Under the pieces are notes generated by a model. That model made no database searches. It was not told the origin of the DNA and saw only the letters and a program-made list of their open reading frames with translations. Shown here in pieces: positions 4,635-15,769 of a DNA stretch of 17,656 nucleotides. A program made the translations under genes and the position numbers. The first letter of the stretch is position 1. The number at the start of each line of letters is the position of its first letter. The DNA is from Promethearchaeota archaeon (GTDB lineage: Archaea; Asgardarchaeota; Lokiarchaeia; Sigyniarchaeales; SOKP01): positions 1 to 17,656 of the forward strand of contig JAFGOA010000216.1 of NCBI GenBank assembly GCA_016926735.1, in the 5' to 3' direction.

Positions 4635-6116
4635 TTAGATCTCTTTCACATTAATATTTACTCTTGGTTTAATCATTATCTTGTTCATTTCACTTAATTC
4701 CCTTAGAGATTCAATTACTTTTAGGATTGATGGTTCTTGTTCTAAAATTGGTGAATTTTGAAGTGCGTTTGCAAAAGCAGAATATGTGTTAGAGACCTTT
4801 TTTTCTGATTCAATATACGCTTTAAATGCATATTTTAGAGCAGAGTATCCCTTTCCTAAAGTTGGATGATCAAAAGCAAAAAATCCCTCACGATATACCA
4901 TTTCTGGAGGTAAATCATCATTAAAAATTCTGCCTTGATTATTGAATGTATTATATACTTCAGTCATCGGAAGTGGTTTCATATTTGATATAAAGTACCA
5001 ACATGAGTCATATTCCAGATTCCTCTTGATTTCTATTTCAATATTTTTCTTGTTATGAAAGGGTAATCCAAGAATAAAATTATGATTAGTTATAATACCT
5101 AAGCTTGAAAGAGATTGTATAAATTTATTTGAAATACCTTTATTTTTAATATAATTTTCTGTCAGGGTTGATTCTATACCATAATTTACAAAAAAGAATT
5201 TTAGTGAACTTTCAGATTGTATCTTTTTAAGATTAAATTTGCTCAAATGAGCTAATGAAATTAAACAAATGATATACATTTTATTTTTAGTCTTGCCTTC
5301 ATTCATAAAATATTCAAAGACTTCATTCCAGACTCTCTCAGGAAAACAAGCATTAGGTTCACATATCTGGATAAAAAAATCTTGGTCTATATTTTTATTT
5401 ATCGCTTCTAAACATTCTATAATTTTTTTTGAATTAGAAAATGGAGTATATTGAAGAGTTGATGTAATACAGAAATCACAATTATATGGACAACCAATTT
5501 GTGAAACAAGATAGAAGGATTTTATTTTAATAGGAAATTGATATACATCAGCTATGATTGAAGGAATTTGATAATCTTCTGGTTTTATCATTGAAAGATT
5601 GAATTTTTTTCTTATCCATGCTATCCCATTCCTCAAACATATATTCTCAAGGGGTATAAGTTTTTGTATATAAGAGAATTTAGCGCCTACATTTCCAACA
5701 TAAATAATTTTATCATTATAATGTTTTTTTAGTGTTTTTATTAGATTTACACCCAAATCTAATCCATGTGCATAGGAACTTATTCCAATATGTGTAATAT
5801 CATCATTTTTATCTAAAATTCTATGTATATCTTTAACTGAGCATGATTCATCAATAACTAATGAATCAATTTCAGGGAGATTTTTTGCCAGATATCTCCC
5901 TTCAATATTAGGTGAATTTAAAATATTAGCATAAATAGATGAATTAAATGGATTTAATTTATATCCATATTCATCAAATGCATTTTGAATTTCAGATTTA
6001 TCAATATATTGAGGAAAATTATCATATTTTGGATCATTTAAAATATCTAAAGCTAATTCCTCTGTAGATTTTAAAGGATTAGGTAAGGTCCTAACAAATA
6101 ATATTCTTTTTTTTAT
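4635..6116 (-). CDS. Cobalamin-binding-domain radical SAM protein (ORF extended 120 codons upstream of the TTG at 5756)
   Basis: CxxxCxxC motif GCPYNCDFC, plus YGIES and FILGLP motifs. The frame stays open upstream and encodes KKRILFV...THIGISSY...KIIYVGNVGA, resembling a B12-binding domain. No in-frame ATG/GTG/TTG there; candidate start ATA at 6114-6116 behind GAGGGA. Confidence 0.8.
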   Translation of the reverse strand: MKKRILFVRTLPNPLKSTEELALDILNDPKYDNFPQYIDKSEIQNAFDEYGYKLNPFNSSIYANILNSPNIEGRYLAKNLPEIDSLVIDESCSVKDIHRILDKNDDITHIGISSYAHGLDLGVNLIKTLKKHYNDKIIYVGNVGAKFSYIQKLIPLENICLRNGIAWIRKKFNLSMIKPEDYQIPSIIADVYQFPIKIKSFYLVSQIGCPYNCDFCITSTLQYTPFSNSKKIIECLEAINKNIDQDFFIQICEPNACFPERVWNEVFEYFMNEGKTKNKMYIICLISLAHLSKFNLKKIQSESSLKFFFVNYGIESTLTENYIKNKGISNKFIQSLSSLGIITNHNFILGLPFHNKKNIEIEIKRNLEYDSCWYFISNMKPLPMTEVYNTFNNQGRIFNDDLPPEMVYREGFFAFDHPTLGKGYSALKYAFKAYIESEKKVSNTYSAFANALQNSPILEQEPSILKVIESLRELSEMNKIMIKPRVNINVKEI

Positions 6117-7265: not shown

Positions 7266-7347
7266 CGCGGAGAGAGGGAATCGAACCCCCATATGTATAA
7301 ACATAACAACTTAGCAAAATGTCGCAATTCCATTATGCGATCTCCGC
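7266..7347 (-). tRNA. tRNA-Ser(GCT), long variable arm, no intron
   Basis: Acceptor GCGGAGA/TCTCCGC, G73; anticodon loop TT-GCT-AA; variable arm TATGT-TTAT-ACATA; T-arm GGGGG-TTCGATT-CCCTC; T30.T40 mismatch in the anticodon stem. Confidence 0.88.
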
Positions 7348-7355
7348 TTCGATTA

Positions 7356-7443
7356 CGTGATGGACAGGATTCGAACCTGTGGTATCGGGATTCGATACTC
7401 CCACTCTCAAGGCGGGCACCTTAAACCTCTCAGTCACCATCAC
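7356..7443 (-). tRNA. tRNA-Ser(TGA), long variable arm, no intron
   Basis: Acceptor GTGATGG/CCATCAC, G73; CCCGC-CT-TGA-GA-GTGGG; variable arm GTATCG-AATCC-CGATAC; T-arm ACAGG-TTCGAAT-CCTGT. Confidence 0.92.
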
Positions 7444-7453
7444 TTTATTAAAG

Positions 7454-7538
7454 TACGGGAATATGGATTTGAACCATAGAACCTTCTTCAAGGTATGGAT
7501 TTTGACTCCACTGCCTTTAACCACTCAGCCATTCCCGC
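7454..7538 (-). tRNA. tRNA-Leu(CAA), long variable arm, no intron
   Basis: Acceptor GCGGGAA/TTCCCGT, A73; GTGGA-GT-CAA-AA-TCCAT; variable arm ACCTT-GAAG-AAGGT; T-arm TATGG-TTCAAAT-CCATA. Confidence 0.9.
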
Positions 7539-7556
7539 TTTCCTATATCGAATAAA

Positions 7557-7638
7557 TACGGATGGTGGGACTCGAACCCACGAGGCACTACTGCACCCGC
7601 TTTTAAAGCGAGATCTATTCCAACTTAGACACATCCGC
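7557..7638 (-). tRNA. tRNA-Leu(TAA), long variable arm, no intron
   Basis: Acceptor GCGGATG/CATCCGT, A73; CTCGC-TT-TAA-AA-GCGGG; variable arm GCA-GTAG-TGC; T-arm GTGGG-TTCGAGT-CCCAC. Confidence 0.9.
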
Positions 7639-7660
7639 TTTTTTTCAATTCGATGTGATG

Positions 7661-7742
7661 TGGGGATGGTGGGACTCGAACCCACGAGGCACTATTGCAT
7701 CCACTTCTAAGGCGGGATCCTTACCAGCTTGGGCACACCCCC
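7661..7742 (-). tRNA. tRNA-Leu(TAG), long variable arm, no intron
   Basis: Acceptor GGGGGTG/CATCCCC, A73; CCCGC-CT-TAG-AA-GTGGA; variable arm GCA-ATAG-TGC; T-arm GTGGG-TTCGAGT-CCCAC; C10.A25 and C27.A43 mismatches. Confidence 0.88.
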
Positions 7743-8491: not shown

Positions 8492-8778
8492 TTATAAAAA
8501 ACATCATATTTTTAATATAATCAGAAATTCAACTATACTTTTTTTTTATAATTATTAATCATTCATTTAAATGCCATTAAACATAAATTATATTCAAAAT
8601 AATTCTAAAATTACTATTTTTTTAGTATAATTTAATGAAAAAAATTATAGAAATCCCTTTTTTTTATTATTTCAAGTCATAAGAGGCTATAATAAAGTAC
8701 AAAATGACAAAAATACATTCAATGTTTCTCCATATTATTTTAAATATGACCTTTTCATTTTATTTTATAATGATAAAA

Positions 8779-8951: not shown

Positions 8952-9509
8952 ATGCTTACTTTACAAAGTGAAATTGTGTTTAAGATTTGTATATTTGGTG
9001 ATAATGGAGCAGGGAAGACTTCGTTTATAAATAGATATTTAACCAGTAATTTTCATTCTTTTTATTCAAAATTAGAGGGAGTTGATTTTTACTCTAAAAA
9101 AGTGAAGATTGACTCACAAAAAGTAGCTTTACAGATTTGGGATTTTTCAGCAGAAGATAGATATAGATTTCTTCTACCAAGTTTCGTTAGTGGTTGCCAT
9201 GCTGCAATATTTATGTTTGATATGACGGATTTTAAATCTTTAAGACATTCTGAGGAATGGCTTAATATGTTCAGAAAAGGTTATAATCAAAAAATAGAAG
9301 GAACCAGCCTCCCAATAATATTAGTAGGAGGAAAATCTGACTTAAGACATAAAAGAGTAATTTCTAGAATGCAAGCTGAGAAGATAGTATCAACTCAAAA
9401 TTTATATCTATACCTTGAATGTTCTGCTAAAACAGGTGAAAATGTGGATTTAATTTTTGAAAACATTACAGATTTAATCAGAGAAAGAACAGGAAATTTA
9501 GTTTATTAG
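8952..9509 (+). CDS. Rab/Ras-superfamily small GTPase (atypical switch motifs)
   Basis: G1 GDNGAGKTS, GVDF, LQIWD, G4 GKSD, G5 CSAK; SD GAGGT upstream; no C-terminal prenylation motif. Confidence 0.92.
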   Translation: MLTLQSEIVFKICIFGDNGAGKTSFINRYLTSNFHSFYSKLEGVDFYSKKVKIDSQKVALQIWDFSAEDRYRFLLPSFVSGCHAAIFMFDMTDFKSLRHSEEWLNMFRKGYNQKIEGTSLPIILVGGKSDLRHKRVISRMQAEKIVSTQNLYLYLECSAKTGENVDLIFENITDLIRERTGNLVY

Positions 9510-9745
9510 AATTTGAACAAGATAAAAAAATATACAAAATAAGGTATTAATTTCATTAATCTAATTTTACATAAGTTAAAATCATTCAAATAAGCTACAA
9601 ATTTATATATTTTTAATAGAAAAATAATGCACTATTTCTCCATAGTCATTTATATATCACTTACTATATCTTATAATTAATAGTGGATTTTTGAACCAAT
9701 CGTTAAATTGCGTTAATATATAATTCTATATTAAATATAAGGAAA

Positions 9746-12700
9746 ATGTTAAGAAAAAAAAAAAAAGGAAAATATGGTATTGTTCTCTTCACCTTAATTC
9801 TTCTCCTATTTAGTATTGGTATCTCACAACCACTATTTTCTCCTCCTTCTTCAATAAATTCTGATAATTCAGATTCAACTTCAGACAATTTAAATATAAT
9901 TCATACTTCAGATTTTGCACCTCCTCAAGAATCACAAGATAATTACGCAGCAGCACTTCAAAAAGCAATATATTTTTATCAGGAACAACGTTCCGGAGAT
10001 CTTCCTGAAAATAATACTGTTATTTGGAGAGGTGACTCCTTTCTTAATGATGGTGAAGTTGTAGGATTAGATCTCACAGGGGGGTATTATAATGATGGGG
10101 GATATCTTAAATTAGGACTTCCATTAGCATCTGCAATTACTACCTTAGCTTGGAGTGTTTATGAATATCAGACAGTTTTTGAAAATATAGGTCAACTTGA
10201 TGAAATATTAGATGCTATTAAATGGGGAACAGATTATTTATTAAAATGTCACCCTTCTCCAAATGAATTTTATTTTCATATTGGAGATATAAGTACGATG
10301 TATGATTGGAGAGGTCCTGTTGAGACTGCTTATATGTTTGTTAATAGACCATCATATAAAGTAGATGAAACACATGGTGGTTCTGCTGTTGTAGCTGCGT
10401 CTTCAGCAGCTTTAGCATTATCTTCAATAATTTTTAATGAAACTAATCCAGATTATGCTATAAATTTAACAATCCATGCAGAACAACTCGATAATTTAGC
10501 ATGGAAAATGGAGTCAGATGATTATTATAATACAGTATATAATTCATTTACTCGATATCAATCTCATAATGGTTTTTATGACGAATTATCAGCTTCAGGA
10601 ATATTATTATATTTAAGAACGGGTAATATTACTTATTTAGAAAAAGCAGAAAATGCAGCATGGTCTTGGCCAAAAGAAGGACCTTATTTCCAATATATGC
10701 AAACTCATTCATGGGATGATATGCATTATATGGCTCAGATCTTTCTTTCACGAGAAACTACTAATCGCTCTTATGTTGAATCAATAGAAAGGAATTTAGA
10801 TTACTGGTCTCCTGCATATGGAACAGAAAATATTACATATACAAATGGAGGTTTAGCATACTTAAATCCAACATGGGCAGGAGAAGGCGCACTTAGATTT
10901 TCAGCTAATGCGGCATTTCTTGCATCAGTTTGGTCTGATGATGTGAATTGTACTCCAACAAATTCTTCAATCTATAGAAAATTTGCTGAATCTCAAATAA
11001 ATTATACACTTGGAGATAATCCATATGGTAGAAGTTATTTAATTGGTTTTGGAAATAGTTCTTGGCAAAATATAAATCACAGAACTGCTCATGGTTCTTG
11101 GTCTGGAAGTATCTCTGATCCAATTGATAATCGACATATTCTATATGGTGCCCTTGTAAGTGGTCCTCGCGGTGGTGATTTTTGGAATGATGATAGAGCA
11201 ATTCCTGAAGAAACAGGCGTTGCAATTGATTATAATGCAGGAATAATTGGCGCATTGGCGAAAATGACAGATTTATATGGTGGTACTCCTTATATAGATT
11301 TTCCAAATGCCTCTTGGTTCAGACCTAAAAATGAGACGGGTCTTGAGTATTACGGTAATTCAGAACTTACCATAAATGGTACAATTTCTACAAGAATAAC
11401 TGTTGATCTTACAAATCACGGTACTTGGCCAGCAAAAGTTACCGATATGCTTTCCTATAGATATTATCTTAATCTAACTGAAGTTTTTGAGGCAGGTTAT
11501 ACTATCGATAATATAACAATTGATATCGATACAGAAGGAGGCATTGAAGCAATAGTTTCAAACTTAATTAATCTTACTAACAATATATATTATGTTGTCG
11601 TTGATTATAGCGGAATTGCCATATATCCAGGTCGTGATGATACAACAGCAAAAGAAACGACTATTACTTTTTCATTACCTATTAGTGCTCCTGATACTGC
11701 ATGGGATCCTACAAATGATTGGTCCTTCCAAGGATTAAATAGTTCAAGACACCCTTCTGAATATATTCCTATTTATGATAATAATGTCCTTATATATGGT
11801 AAGTGTCCTGTTAATGATACAACTCCACCAATAGCCACAATAACAGGTTTGAATACAACAGTTATAGATTCCTCACAAATTAGATTAGATTGGGATTTTA
11901 ATCCAGATCCAGATATCTATGGATATAATATTTATAGAGAAATTTACTCTGGTTTTGACCCAAACGGTTTGAATAGAGTAGGACAAACAATCACTAATCA
12001 CTATCTTGATACGATGTTATATGAAAATACCACATATTATTATATCGTAATCCCTATTGATAGTAGTCTTAATTTAGGTACTCCTTCAAATGAAGTTAAT
12101 GCAACTACAGATGAAGATTTGTATTCTCCAGCAGCTCCAACAAATGTATCAACTAATAGGATGAATTCCACAGCAGTATTTATTGATTGGAATGATAATA
12201 TAGAACCAGATCTGACAAAATATTTTATTTATAGAAGCACAAACGACACTTTCATAGCAGATGGATCAAGCTTCTTAGCAGAGTCATTTATAAGCGAATA
12301 TTTAGATATCAATAGTTCTATTGAATCCTCATACTATTATATTATTGTTGCTGTTGACATTAATGATAACCTGAGTAATTCATCTTTAATAGCTGATGCA
12401 ATAACTCCATTAATAGTAACAGGTTTAAATATTACTTTTTTTGATTCATCACAGATTCGATTAAATTGGACTGCGAATACTTATACTAATCTTTATTCAT
12501 ATTATATTTATAGAAATACTTATTCAGGATTTGAAGCTAATAATAGTTATAGAATTGGAGAATCTTTTATAAATGGATTTAATGATACTTTATTATTTGA
12601 AAATACAACCTATTATTATATTGTAAGGGCTGTTGATAATAGTCTCAATATTGGCCCATCATCAAATGAAGTCAATGCTACAACAGCTATTGATTCATCG

Positions 12701-13414
12701 GCCCCGGCATCCCCTACAAATGTCTCAACACCTATAGTAAATTCTACAGAAATATTCCTTGATTGGGATGATAATATAGAAATTGATGTAGTTGGATATT
12801 TAATATATAGAAGTATTCACCAGAATTTTACTCCAAATTCATCAACATTTTTAGCTCAAACGATAGTTAGTGAATATCTAGATACTAATATTTCTGCAGG
12901 AATAACATACTATTATAAAATCGTTGCTGTTGATATAAATGGATATCAAAGTGGTCCTTCATATGAAATAAGTGCTACTGTACCATCTATAGTAAACCCT
13001 CGAAATGAATTGATGATAGTAGTTATAGTTATCTTAGGTATTATCATGACGTTATTAGGTTCTGTATATGTTTTAGCCAGGCAAAAACCTAAAAGACCTA
13101 TGTCTCAAATGGTTTTACATGAACAACCAAAAGAGCATAAAGTTTTTATAAAAAGTGAAGTAGATGTTTTAGATAATAGTAGACTTATACATATTTTTGA
13201 AGAAGAAGAGCTCTTGCAAAGAATTGATCATTTTAAAGATATAACGATAACAATCCTTGAAGAAGATTTTCTTGAAAATATTGAAAAACTAGATTGGGAC
13301 GATGACTTAGAGAAAAAAACATTCATAAAAGAAATGCTTGTATTAACACCAGATGAAAGACAGAAAATCATTAAAGAAATGCTTAATGATTATTATAACC
13401 AATCGAAAAAATAA
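9746..13414 (+). CDS. Single-pass surface protein: signal peptide, GH9-like domain (catalytic residues substituted), CBM3-like, 4x FN3, TM helix, cytoplasmic tail
   Basis: GH9 motifs QRSGDLP, WRGDS, DLTGGYY, KWGTDYLLK, YDEL, WDD, GDNP.GRSY.IG.G, HRTAHGSW, LYGALV.GP, A.DYNAG; CBM3c-like N..TWPA...LSYRYY.NLTE...WDPTNDWSFQGL; FN3 repeats; TM LMIVVIVILGIIMTLLGSVYVLA followed by RQKPKR; many N-X-S/T sequons. Confidence 0.9.
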   Translation: MLRKKKKGKYGIVLFTLILLLFSIGISQPLFSPPSSINSDNSDSTSDNLNIIHTSDFAPPQESQDNYAAALQKAIYFYQEQRSGDLPENNTVIWRGDSFLNDGEVVGLDLTGGYYNDGGYLKLGLPLASAITTLAWSVYEYQTVFENIGQLDEILDAIKWGTDYLLKCHPSPNEFYFHIGDISTMYDWRGPVETAYMFVNRPSYKVDETHGGSAVVAASSAALALSSIIFNETNPDYAINLTIHAEQLDNLAWKMESDDYYNTVYNSFTRYQSHNGFYDELSASGILLYLRTGNITYLEKAENAAWSWPKEGPYFQYMQTHSWDDMHYMAQIFLSRETTNRSYVESIERNLDYWSPAYGTENITYTNGGLAYLNPTWAGEGALRFSANAAFLASVWSDDVNCTPTNSSIYRKFAESQINYTLGDNPYGRSYLIGFGNSSWQNINHRTAHGSWSGSISDPIDNRHILYGALVSGPRGGDFWNDDRAIPEETGVAIDYNAGIIGALAKMTDLYGGTPYIDFPNASWFRPKNETGLEYYGNSELTINGTISTRITVDLTNHGTWPAKVTDMLSYRYYLNLTEVFEAGYTIDNITIDIDTEGGIEAIVSNLINLTNNIYYVVVDYSGIAIYPGRDDTTAKETTITFSLPISAPDTAWDPTNDWSFQGLNSSRHPSEYIPIYDNNVLIYGKCPVNDTTPPIATITGLNTTVIDSSQIRLDWDFNPDPDIYGYNIYREIYSGFDPNGLNRVGQTITNHYLDTMLYENTTYYYIVIPIDSSLNLGTPSNEVNATTDEDLYSPAAPTNVSTNRMNSTAVFIDWNDNIEPDLTKYFIYRSTNDTFIADGSSFLAESFISEYLDINSSIESSYYYIIVAVDINDNLSNSSLIADAITPLIVTGLNITFFDSSQIRLNWTANTYTNLYSYYIYRNTYSGFEANNSYRIGESFINGFNDTLLFENTTYYYIVRAVDNSLNIGPSSNEVNATTAIDSSAPASPTNVSTPIVNSTEIFLDWDDNIEIDVVGYLIYRSIHQNFTPNSSTFLAQTIVSEYLDTNISAGITYYYKIVAVDINGYQSGPSYEISATVPSIVNPRNELMIVVIVILGIIMTLLGSVYVLARQKPKRPMSQMVLHEQPKEHKVFIKSEVDVLDNSRLIHIFEEEELLQRIDHFKDITITILEEDFLENIEKLDWDDDLEKKTFIKEMLVLTPDERQKIIKEMLNDYYNQSKK
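11843..12985 (+). repeat. Tandem 576-bp duplication encoding FN3 domains in A-B-A-B order
   Basis: TGLN...DSSQIRL.W...ENTTYYYIV...SNEVNATT...PA.PTNVST...DW.DNIE recurs with a 576-nt period (11843/12419; 12089/12665). Confidence 0.85.
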
Positions 13415-13443: not shown

Positions 13444-13905
13444 ATGATAATAATGTCTTCTAGATTAGTCCGTCAGGAAAAATTAGTTTATGAAGAAATA
13501 AAACATTATCTTAACGAAAATAGAGTTTTTGAATTAAATAAAGCATTATCTTATATTAAAAATCAATTCAATAAAAACAACCTTAAATTTGATCTAAATC
13601 AAATTAAAAATATTTTTTTATCATTTTTAAAAAGAAAAATAATAGTAGAAGGTTCTTATTTAGTTAGAGAAGATATTTTATCAATAAAAAAAAGACGATT
13701 TATTTTCAAATATATTATTCAAAATCCAGGAGTTTCCTTTTTTGATATCAAACAAGAATTAAATTATAATTCTCACATATTAAAATGGCATCTAAGCATT
13801 CTTTTAATATTTGATTATATTTATAAAATTCAAATTGAAAATCGTGATACTTATTTTGATTCAAATTATCTTCAAGAAGATTCCAACATTCCAGATAATG
13901 TTTAA
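13444..13905 (+). CDS. Winged-helix transcriptional regulator
   Basis: RRFIFKYIIQNPG.SF.DIK.EL....HIL.WHL.IL.....I wHTH pattern after an N-terminal helical domain; starts 29 nt after the GH9-like gene. Confidence 0.75.
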   Translation: MIIMSSRLVRQEKLVYEEIKHYLNENRVFELNKALSYIKNQFNKNNLKFDLNQIKNIFLSFLKRKIIVEGSYLVREDILSIKKRRFIFKYIIQNPGVSFFDIKQELNYNSHILKWHLSILLIFDYIYKIQIENRDTYFDSNYLQEDSNIPDNV

Positions 13906-14983: not shown

Positions 14984-15769
14984 TTGAGTATATTAATTGC
15001 GCTATTGGGAATATTAGCATCAATAATGATGATAATTGTCTATAGGAAACAAAGAGAATTAAAACTTTTATTATTATCATATCTGAATACGACAATAGGG
15101 GTTGTTATCAGCGCTTTAAATGATATTTTTACTCCAGGAGCGATTGGTCATGAAATAAGTAGAATATTTTATATTCTTGGTTCGTTAATACTCTTCATTT
15201 CAGTTTTTAAAGAATATTCACAAACATTCCGTAAAAGGAAAGATAATTTTTTAAATAATAATCTTGAATTATCTGTGGTTGTAATTATAACACCAAGTTT
15301 AATCATTACAATCTCTTTAGAAATACTTATAATTACTTTTTGTTTGATCTCAGCTATGATGTCTTTTAGGATAGCAAAGAAAAAAAGAAAATATGCTAAT
15401 GCATTTTTAGGTATGTGTTTATGTACTGTTTTATCAGCTTTGTCATTAACAATTGTCGAAAGTTTAGGATTTGAGGAAATGAGATTATTTGCTTTAGGTA
15501 TGGATATCATCTTTTTTACAATGCTTTTTATAACGGCTATTGTTATCTTTTTAGAACAAAAATTAATCACAACAGAAGCAGATAAAACAATTATGAAAGA
15601 TAAATATTCTCATGATTTAGGTAATATTCTACACACAATTTCTCTTTCATATGAATTAATTAAAAATGATGATAAGACTAATATAACTCTACCTAAAGAA
15701 TTGGATGAATTAATACAAAAAAAAATTGAAGAAGCATCTAATGTTGTACGATTTATAAGATCTTTATGA
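14984..15769 (+). CDS. Multi-pass membrane protein with C-terminal HisKA (DHp)-like domain and no ATPase domain
   Basis: About six hydrophobic segments, then H-box-like YSHDLGNIL; the ORF stops ~50 aa later. The start may be slightly upstream (GAGGTG at 14949, in-frame ATT at 14963). Confidence 0.7.
   Translation: MSILIALLGILASIMMIIVYRKQRELKLLLLSYLNTTIGVVISALNDIFTPGAIGHEISRIFYILGSLILFISVFKEYSQTFRKRKDNFLNNNLELSVVVIITPSLIITISLEILIITFCLISAMMSFRIAKKKRKYANAFLGMCLCTVLSALSLTIVESLGFEEMRLFALGMDIIFFTMLFITAIVIFLEQKLITTEADKTIMKDKYSHDLGNILHTISLSYELIKNDDKTNITLPKELDELIQKKIEEASNVVRFIRSL

Follow-up and report, generated by a model that had tools for sequence, protein, structure and literature searches.

What might an archaeon do with a family 9 glycoside hydrolase (GH9) from which the catalytic residues have been lost? 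The question is raised by a Lokiarchaeial contig of 17,656 nucleotides (JAFGOA010000216.1, assembly GCA_016926735.1), referred to here in its entirety as the window, which carries on its plus strand an open reading frame (ORF) for a GH9 protein. Among named relatives, those nearest to it are listed under "Candidatus Lokiarchaeota archaeon" and bear a GH9 annotation. The window is AT-rich (G+C 22-34%); its host genome (G000) comprises 3.88 Mb in 238 contigs and is 99% complete, and the other three genomes of the genus are referred to as G006, G009 and G034. The protein is predicted to be a conserved pseudoenzyme, and on balance our analysis leans towards a non-catalytic glucan-binding receptor, in which a dead GH9 domain (one without catalytic base and acid) on a stalk of FN3 repeats would report extracellular cellulose by way of a membrane span, a tail and a winged helix-turn-helix (wHTH) partner protein. 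From the N terminus to the C terminus, the ORF consists of a hydrophobic segment, GH9, CBM3c, four FN3-like repeats, the membrane span and a cytoplasmic tail:

9746-13414, plus strand: whole ORF, 1222 amino acids, reading frame intact
9746-9835, plus strand: Lys-rich and hydrophobic N-terminal segment, residues 1-30, a probable signal peptide (hydropathy peak at residues 8-30; sequence reading)
9944-11257, plus strand: GH9 (alpha/alpha)6 domain, residues 67-504, catalytically stripped (Pfam PF00759, E 7e-110; AlphaFold2 (AF2) model; Foldseek)
11303-11815, plus strand: CBM3c module, residues ~520-690 (aligns to CBM3c of 1js4, 8u49 and 2xfg_B; PF00942 in the precomputed Pfam list)
11816-12991, plus strand: four FN3-like repeats arranged as (A-B)x2, forming a stalk with many N-X-S/T sequons (Pfam fn3 at residues 989-1076; sequence reading)
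13001-13069, plus strand: single membrane span, residues ~1086-1108, followed by RQKPKRP (hydropathy)
13169-13402, plus strand: conserved tail domain, residues ~1142-1219, a small helical bundle (ortholog identity, dN/dS, AF2)

Loss of the hydrolytic centre

The GH9 domain matches PF00759 over profile positions 1-444 of 444. Its motifs were read from a phmmer alignment (PDB sequences) to Thermobifida fusca Cel9A (1js4), which is gap-free at the motifs. The following segments depart from the enzyme:

10091-10102, plus strand: NDGG in place of DAGD; Asp55 is Asn116 and Asp58 is Gly119 (alignment to Cel9A)
10298-10309, plus strand: MYDW in place of DH.W; the +1 clamp His (Cel9A H125, CelR H141) is Tyr186 (alignment; roles from PMC10149213)
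10877-10888, plus strand: AGEG, a clade-specific insert after the -2 Trp (W377) that carries Glu380 (alignment; pLDDT ~62, low confidence)
11072-11083, plus strand: INHR in place of PHHR, residues 443-446; the first His of HHR is lost (alignment to Cel9A)
11204-11224, plus strand: PEETGVA in place of Y..NEVA; the clamp Tyr is Pro487 and the acid Glu424 is Gly491 (alignment to Cel9A)

The segment DAGDH of Cel9A reads NDGGY in the window protein (residues 116-120), and DHKWW reads MYDWR (residues 185-189). An active inverting GH9 enzyme has a catalytic base, a helper Asp and a catalytic acid; here the first two are Gly119 and Asn116, and the third is Gly491 (codon 11216-11218). The initial annotation had reported that all three carboxylates were gone, with DAGD changed to NDGG and NEVA to TGVA, and that DH..W and PHHR had become MYDW and INHR; the gap-free alignment to Cel9A agrees on every point. 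The elements that it had listed as kept are indeed kept, namely WDD (residues 323-325), the Trp of W....LR (W377, now followed by the insert of 3-4 residues) and HRTAHGSW. The -3 Trp of the cleft is lost as well.

In CelR, the catalytic residues are D71, D74 and E439, the +1 clamp consists of H141 and Y435, the -2 Trp is W330 and the -4 pair is D278/D279; the His and Trp of the -3 subsite are H226 and W209 in Cel9A, and the Ca ligands have likewise been assigned (PMC10149213). A CelR mutant altered in the acid only (E439Q, 7v0i) still holds cellohexaose (PMC10149213). By comparison of these residues, the -1/+1 centre of the window protein is dismantled, with the minus subsites and the fold preserved.

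A clade of GH9 proteins without base and acid

The D-D-E triad is present in all 115 of the other proteins among the best 120 homologs. Its loss in the window protein goes well beyond what chance would give. A wider survey drew on 1.84 billion proteins, from which the best 150 representatives (50% clusters) were taken: 139 of them read D-D-E, 8 were fragments or incomplete rows, and P0001 and P0009 had neither base nor acid. Both of the latter are from this archaeal group, and among the best 150 representatives the loss of base and acid together occurred only there. One unrelated GH9-CBM3c protein (P0256; 676 amino acids, 35% identity) reads N-D-D, having NAGD and Asp for the acid Glu, and its site is perhaps partly altered.

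Nine proteins without base and acid were identified (two in G000, two in G006, three in G009, one in G034 and one in a metagenome), the dead proteins coming from four species of one Lokiarchaeial genus. The dead sub-lineages, of which there are at least three, have the motifs NDGG/TGVA, DDDG/NRVA, DGSG/TSIA and DGS(S/N)/N(K/R)VA; in members other than the window protein, the acid is replaced by Arg, Ser or Lys and the base by Ser or Asn. The clade is monophyletic (SH-aLRT 100, and 98 with all motif columns removed) and is nested among intact dockerin-bearing Lokiarchaeial GH9 proteins. Genes for GH9-CBM3c were found in 5 of 151 genomes of the order: all four of the genus and one of another family. 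The second dead GH9-CBM3c gene of the host genome (G000 C186:59-1951; L016 = P0009) encodes a paralog with DGSS/NKVA and 53% identity that ends at the contig edge in FN3, and its ortholog in G034 is 90% identical. No overlap was found that would join C186 to C124 or C184 (tail at contig start); FN3 repeats seem to break the assemblies.

Conserved columns and inserts were counted in eight dead proteins. All eight retain 91 of the 145 columns that are at least 95% conserved in the 115 intact homologs; what is preserved includes the -4 Asp pair, the -2 Trp, Tyr206, DYNA and the Asp/Glu that bind Ca. Seventeen columns are altered in at least 5 of the 8, including D58, E424, H125, Y420, the first His of HHR, R378 and the Ala-Gly within DAGD, and ten invariant substitutions are peculiar to the clade, such as that of the Ca-site Ser by Asn275. 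The insert of 3-4 residues after the -2 Trp, found in none of the 115 intact homologs, supplies Glu380 in 7 of the 8 dead members and is missing from one dead sub-lineage.

These counts bear on whether the protein may still be an enzyme, with Asp117, Glu488/489 or Glu380 acting as base or acid, or with another reaction such as transglycosylation. Carboxylates do stand nearby, as the initial annotation had cautioned for Asp117 and Glu488/489: Asp117 is at the position of Ala56 of Cel9A, Glu488/489 are at those of Val421/Ala422, all of these are conserved in the closest sub-clade, and Glu380 is present in most dead members. However, the other dead sub-lineages do not share Asp117 and Glu488/489, which therefore cannot explain the clade as a whole; the acid position is occupied by Lys, Arg or Ser and the base position by Ser or Asn; the clamp His and Tyr are lost as well; and one sub-lineage does without the Glu380 insert. 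In GH9 enzymes, single changes at these positions generally cut activity by orders of magnitude. We regard continued catalysis as very unlikely.

Selection was estimated as the Nei-Gojobori ratio of nonsynonymous to synonymous substitution rates (dN/dS), which was 0.216 for the dead pair of G000 and G034, compared with 0.233 and 0.173 when intact paralogs were paired between those genomes, and 0.21-0.24 for the window protein versus its relatives in G006. By domain, the values versus G006 were 0.16 for GH9, 0.18 for CBM3c, 0.23 for FN3, 0.9 for the membrane span, 0.76 for the linker and 0.11 for the tail domain, the tail giving 0.075 versus G009; the estimates for CBM3c spanned 0.18-0.21. A gene copy decaying on its way to loss would be expected to shed its catalytic residues, all of which are gone here; nevertheless, the frame of 1222 codons is intact, dN/dS is ~0.2 as in intact paralogs, and the gene is kept in four species and several sub-lineages. 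Decay was rejected on the selection and clade data and has next to no chance of being correct. Because the clade is monophyletic and spans several species, lacks base and acid throughout, and is under purifying selection equal to that on intact paralogs, these sequence comparisons support the dead GH9 protein well as a pseudoenzyme. The initial annotation had proposed as much, on the strength of a targeted loss of catalysis in an otherwise conserved fold, and had named dN/dS and the motif state of orthologs as the comparisons to be made; the constraint seen in intact paralogs and the clade-wide absence of base and acid uphold it.

Fold and probable ligand

The AF2 model of residues 62-690 (pLDDT 92.5, pTM 0.93) was placed by Foldseek at TM 0.88-0.91 to the solved GH9-CBM3c enzymes 8u49, 1g87 and 1tf4. 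In the phmmer comparison with PDB sequences, residues 62-688 align to GH9-CBM3c processive endoglucanases (8u49, E 2e-146; 7unp, 1js4 and 1g87), and a CBM3c alone (2xfg_B) was matched with E 1.2e-24; the CBM3c module directly follows GH9, as in theme-B enzymes. Homology to the theme-B enzymes Cel9A/E4 of T. fusca (1js4/4tf4), CelR of A. thermocellus (7unp/7v0i), Cel9G of C. cellulolyticum (1g87) and Cel9A of B. licheniformis (8u49) extends over the whole unit at 40-42% identity. The window protein shares with them WDD (-4), the -2 Trp, Tyr206, DYNA, the Ca ligands and CBM3c, but differs in that the base, the acid, Asp55, both +1 clamps and the first His of HHR are replaced and a new loop follows the -2 Trp. 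It is also membrane-anchored, has a cytoplasmic tail and is neither secreted nor dockerin-borne.

Because the hydrolytic centre is gone and the fold, the Ca site, the -4 to -2 subsites and CBM3c are kept, the dead GH9 domain most likely binds glucan without cutting it. A receptor or binder for some ligand other than cellulose (a protein, a different glycan or glycans of the host's own surface), with the GH9 fold as a mere scaffold, would account for the remodelling of the cleft, which has neither the -3 Trp nor the +1 clamp, has gained a loop and bears ten substitutions that are invariant and clade-specific. Against this stand the purifying selection that still acts on the -4 Asp pair, on the -2 Trp and Tyr206, on the Ca ligands and on all of CBM3c, and the confinement of the clade to a genus that also has intact GH9 cellulases; we consider such a ligand quite improbable.

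A surface protein with a conserved cytoplasmic tail

The ectodomain contains 38 N-X-S/T sequons, compared with 17 +/- 3.6 on shuffling, an excess that fits an exposed archaeal glycoprotein. Tandem Repeats Finder detected no DNA-level repeat in the FN3 stalk (11816-12991). The lengths of two orthologs (P0002, 1027 amino acids; G009 C33, 1413 amino acids) suggest two to six FN3 repeats and a stalk length that varies among species.

Beyond the membrane span and the basic residues lies a cytoplasmic tail of 115 amino acids, the last ~75 of which are 79-85% identical to those of orthologs, with long stretches unchanged, and are the most constrained part of the protein. AF2 modelled the tail as a disordered linker followed by five helices, with pLDDT >90 over the last 45 residues. 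The tail domain has no Pfam match, no Atlas match and no Foldseek match in the PDB with E <= 0.001. A hidden Markov model (HMM) of the tail matches the window protein after its single span with E 8e-29 to 3e-30, and in a set of ~150 sequences, made up of GH9 proteins and ORFs of the loci and including 115 intact homologs, it matches dead-clade members solely. All complete dead copies end in a span and a helical tail of ~75 residues; no intact copy does, and the intact sister clade bears dockerins instead.

The tail is not peculiar to GH9 proteins. The host genome has twelve copies of the domain, which also terminates ten further ORFs there, on ectodomains of the SBP_bac_5 type, of the right-handed beta-helix/NosD type (four cases) or of unknown type; two ORFs are stand-alone proteins of 85-97 amino acids. 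In the order, 121 of the 151 genomes carry the tail domain, as do 45 of the 54 in the family, and the remainder of the phylum sample is nearly devoid of it. Stand-alone tail ORFs of 85-98 amino acids were noted at G000 C184:388-678 and C222:41135-41389, G006 C194, G009 C39/C10 and G034 C3; these have no membrane span and no adjacent wHTH gene, and could be soluble competitors or fragments.

The winged-helix partner gene

The gene that follows the tail on the same strand encodes a member of a wHTH family:

13444-13905, plus strand: partner gene, winged-helix protein of 153 amino acids, 29 nucleotides downstream of the dead GH9 gene (PF24266 HTH at residues 83-143, E 1.8e-4, below the family cut-off)

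Orthologs of the partner follow the tail in G009 and G034, and paralogs adjoin other tail genes. In a sample of 23 tail-bearing ORFs from 12 genomes, eight of which are from other genera, a wHTH-family ORF was found within 200 nucleotides on the same strand in 19 cases, lying downstream in 16 and upstream in 3. Of the four ORFs without such a neighbour, two are stand-alone tails, one lies at a contig end and one is the ortholog on G006 C145. A second dead sub-lineage (G009 C75) likewise has the tail and a wHTH gene.

The host organism appears, from its gene content, to have a cellulosome-like system: its genome has 19 dockerin and 7 cohesin matches, including multi-cohesin proteins of 1500-2000 amino acids. 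Examples in G000 are C147:32813-34162, C154 and C55. With such a repertoire, the window protein could be a pure adhesin or lectin that attaches the cell to fibres of cellulose or keeps substrate close to dockerin enzymes, its tail serving for anchoring or sorting. This alternative would suit the surface-anchored architecture with its many sequons, the short form of the partner wHTH protein and the absence of a partner beside the G006 ortholog. It does not explain why the tail should be the most constrained part of the protein, nor why the tail recurs on unrelated ectodomains, nearly always by a wHTH gene, which a simple anchor would not need. We judge a pure adhesin to be unlikely. Because the tail is the best-conserved part of the protein and belongs to a recurring pair of tail and wHTH genes, a receptor is preferred to a plain lectin. 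The initial annotation had spoken of a lectin-like pseudoenzyme, of which the second word stands, and the first is too narrow for a single-pass membrane protein with a conserved tail and a wHTH pair.

A proposed cellulose receptor

In the receptor that we favour, the gene product would be a type I membrane protein with a single span, glycosylated and exposed on the surface of a Lokiarchaeon that degrades cellulose. Its outer GH9-CBM3c unit, with the hydrolytic centre dismantled, would bind a beta-1,4-glucan chain or a cello-oligosaccharide uncut, and the ectodomain, raised on the FN3 stalk, would be coupled through one span to the conserved helical tail. The tail may hold or release the neighbouring winged-helix protein, by which extracellular cellulose would be reported to gene expression. 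A cellulase would thus have been recruited into a pre-existing, family-wide receptor architecture of tail and wHTH protein, and would then have lost its chemistry. The analysis shows that the residues are lost, that the fold is conserved, that selection is purifying, how the clade is structured, that the tail goes exclusively with dead GH9 and that tail and wHTH genes adjoin; ligand binding, the absence of activity, the contact of tail and regulator, the direction of the signal and its targets are inferred. A more specific version, in which the dead GH9 domain is a cellulose-sensing head and the tail sequesters the wHTH regulator, frees it on ligand binding and so controls cellulosome-like enzymes, as an independent invention similar to RsgI/SigI, is put forward tentatively, as somewhat short of an even chance.

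Several observations weigh against the receptor. Binding and the lack of hydrolysis are deduced from residues only; with the +1 clamp and the -3 Trp lost and the AGEG loop placed by the -2 Trp, the ligand may no longer be cellulose, and the remodelled cleft and Glu380 loop may leave room for a different ligand or, less likely, for residual chemistry. The partner in the window is short and has two domains, without the extra C-terminal HTH of its paralogs of ~220-245 amino acids, and its Pfam HTH match lies under the family cut-off. No remnant of the missing HTH was found downstream of 13444-13905, and the partner ortholog of G034 is also 153 amino acids long. Between the tail and a flavodoxin gene on G006 C145 (L041, 2665-3200), all frames are closed and there is no wHTH gene, which suggests that the partner of this ortholog has been lost. 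The divergence of tails and of wHTH proteins is correlated (Mantel r 0.68, p 2e-4 overall; r 0.32, p 0.08 within the host genome), but such co-divergence is expected from co-inheritance alone and is not proof of contact. Lastly, a search of the host genome with a conserved block upstream of the gene (9633-9700, described below) gave no convincing regulon or shared operator.

Comparison with bacterial carbohydrate sensors

In the clostridial protein Rsi24C-GH5, a GH5 module without its acid/base retains binding to crystalline cellulose and is believed to pass a signal to an anti-sigma domain inside the cell (PMC3526467, PMC3413522). The logic of the window system is shared with RsgI6-GH10, RsgI-CBM3 and Rsi24C-GH5 of Clostridium (Acetivibrio) thermocellum: an extracellular carbohydrate module, one span, a cytoplasmic domain and a DNA-targeting protein next door. 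The hosts of RsgI-type sensors and the host of the window both have a cohesin/dockerin system. However, the window system is archaeal and built on GH9, whereas the RsgI-type systems are bacterial and built on GH5, GH10 or CBM3; the topology is opposite to that of RsgI, the sensor being N-terminal and outside and the tail C-terminal and inside; and the partner is a wHTH protein rather than a sigma factor. Neither the window protein nor its neighbours have a Pfam match to the RsgI-N domain or to sigma-I, and comparisons of the tail with RsgI-N and with the entries of Pfam and the PDB revealed no similarity. In our analysis, the window system would work like the RsgI/Rsi24C sensors and is not a member of their family. 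A search of the literature gave no published account of a conserved clade of GH9 pseudoenzymes, of a Lokiarchaeota GH9 or of an Asgard cellulosome, and no published description of the Lokiarchaeial two-gene module of tail and wHTH protein.

Upstream region and neighbouring genes

The gene is preceded by a conserved block and by a small GTPase gene:

9633-9700, plus strand: conserved promoter-proximal block, a TTTATATA box flanked by TATTTCTCCATAGTC and GTGGATTTTTGAACCAAT (near base-for-base identity to G009)
8952-9509, plus strand: Ras-family small GTPase directly upstream of the dead GH9 gene (PF00071, E 3e-38; syntenic in G009, 76% identity)

The block is almost identical upstream of the syntenic ortholog in G009, where the surrounding AT-rich spacer has diverged, and is a candidate operator or promoter. 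A related TTTCTCCATA...TAAATA element was noted at position 8725 of the window, upstream of the GTPase gene. The order of Ras, GH9, tail, wHTH and transmembrane protein genes is kept in G009. The Ras-like GTPase was rejected as a general part of the module, being found beside a tail gene only here and at the G009 ortholog; the host genome has 45 Ras-like ORFs, none of them within 5 kb of the other 10 tail genes.

Further features of the window are as follows:

14984-15769, plus strand: multi-span membrane protein of 261 amino acids whose C-terminal ..YSHDLGNILHT.. recalls the H-box of histidine kinases; matched by no family of Pfam or NCBIfam; synteny kept in G006 (65%) and G009 (56%)
7266-7742, minus strand: five closely spaced tRNA genes (Ser-GCT, Ser-TGA, Leu-CAA, Leu-TAA, Leu-TAG)
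4635-5756, minus strand: ORF of 373 amino acids with CPYNCDFC (CX3CX2C, radical-SAM-like); no Pfam match at E <= 0.01

Implications

The genus stands out in its order, in that GH9 occurs in only 5 of the 151 genomes searched and is accompanied in the genus by dockerins and cohesins. Databases label the dead proteins "glycoside hydrolase family 9", and counting them as cellulases overstates the degradative capacity of Asgard genomes. If they are receptors, a dead glycosidase has been reused as a sensor convergently, as in Rsi24C-GH5 of Clostridium, and the system would come with a candidate ligand (beta-glucan), a tail domain and a DNA-binding partner, each of them defined. The sensing of the outside world by the archaea most closely related to eukaryotes would thereby become open to concrete tests.

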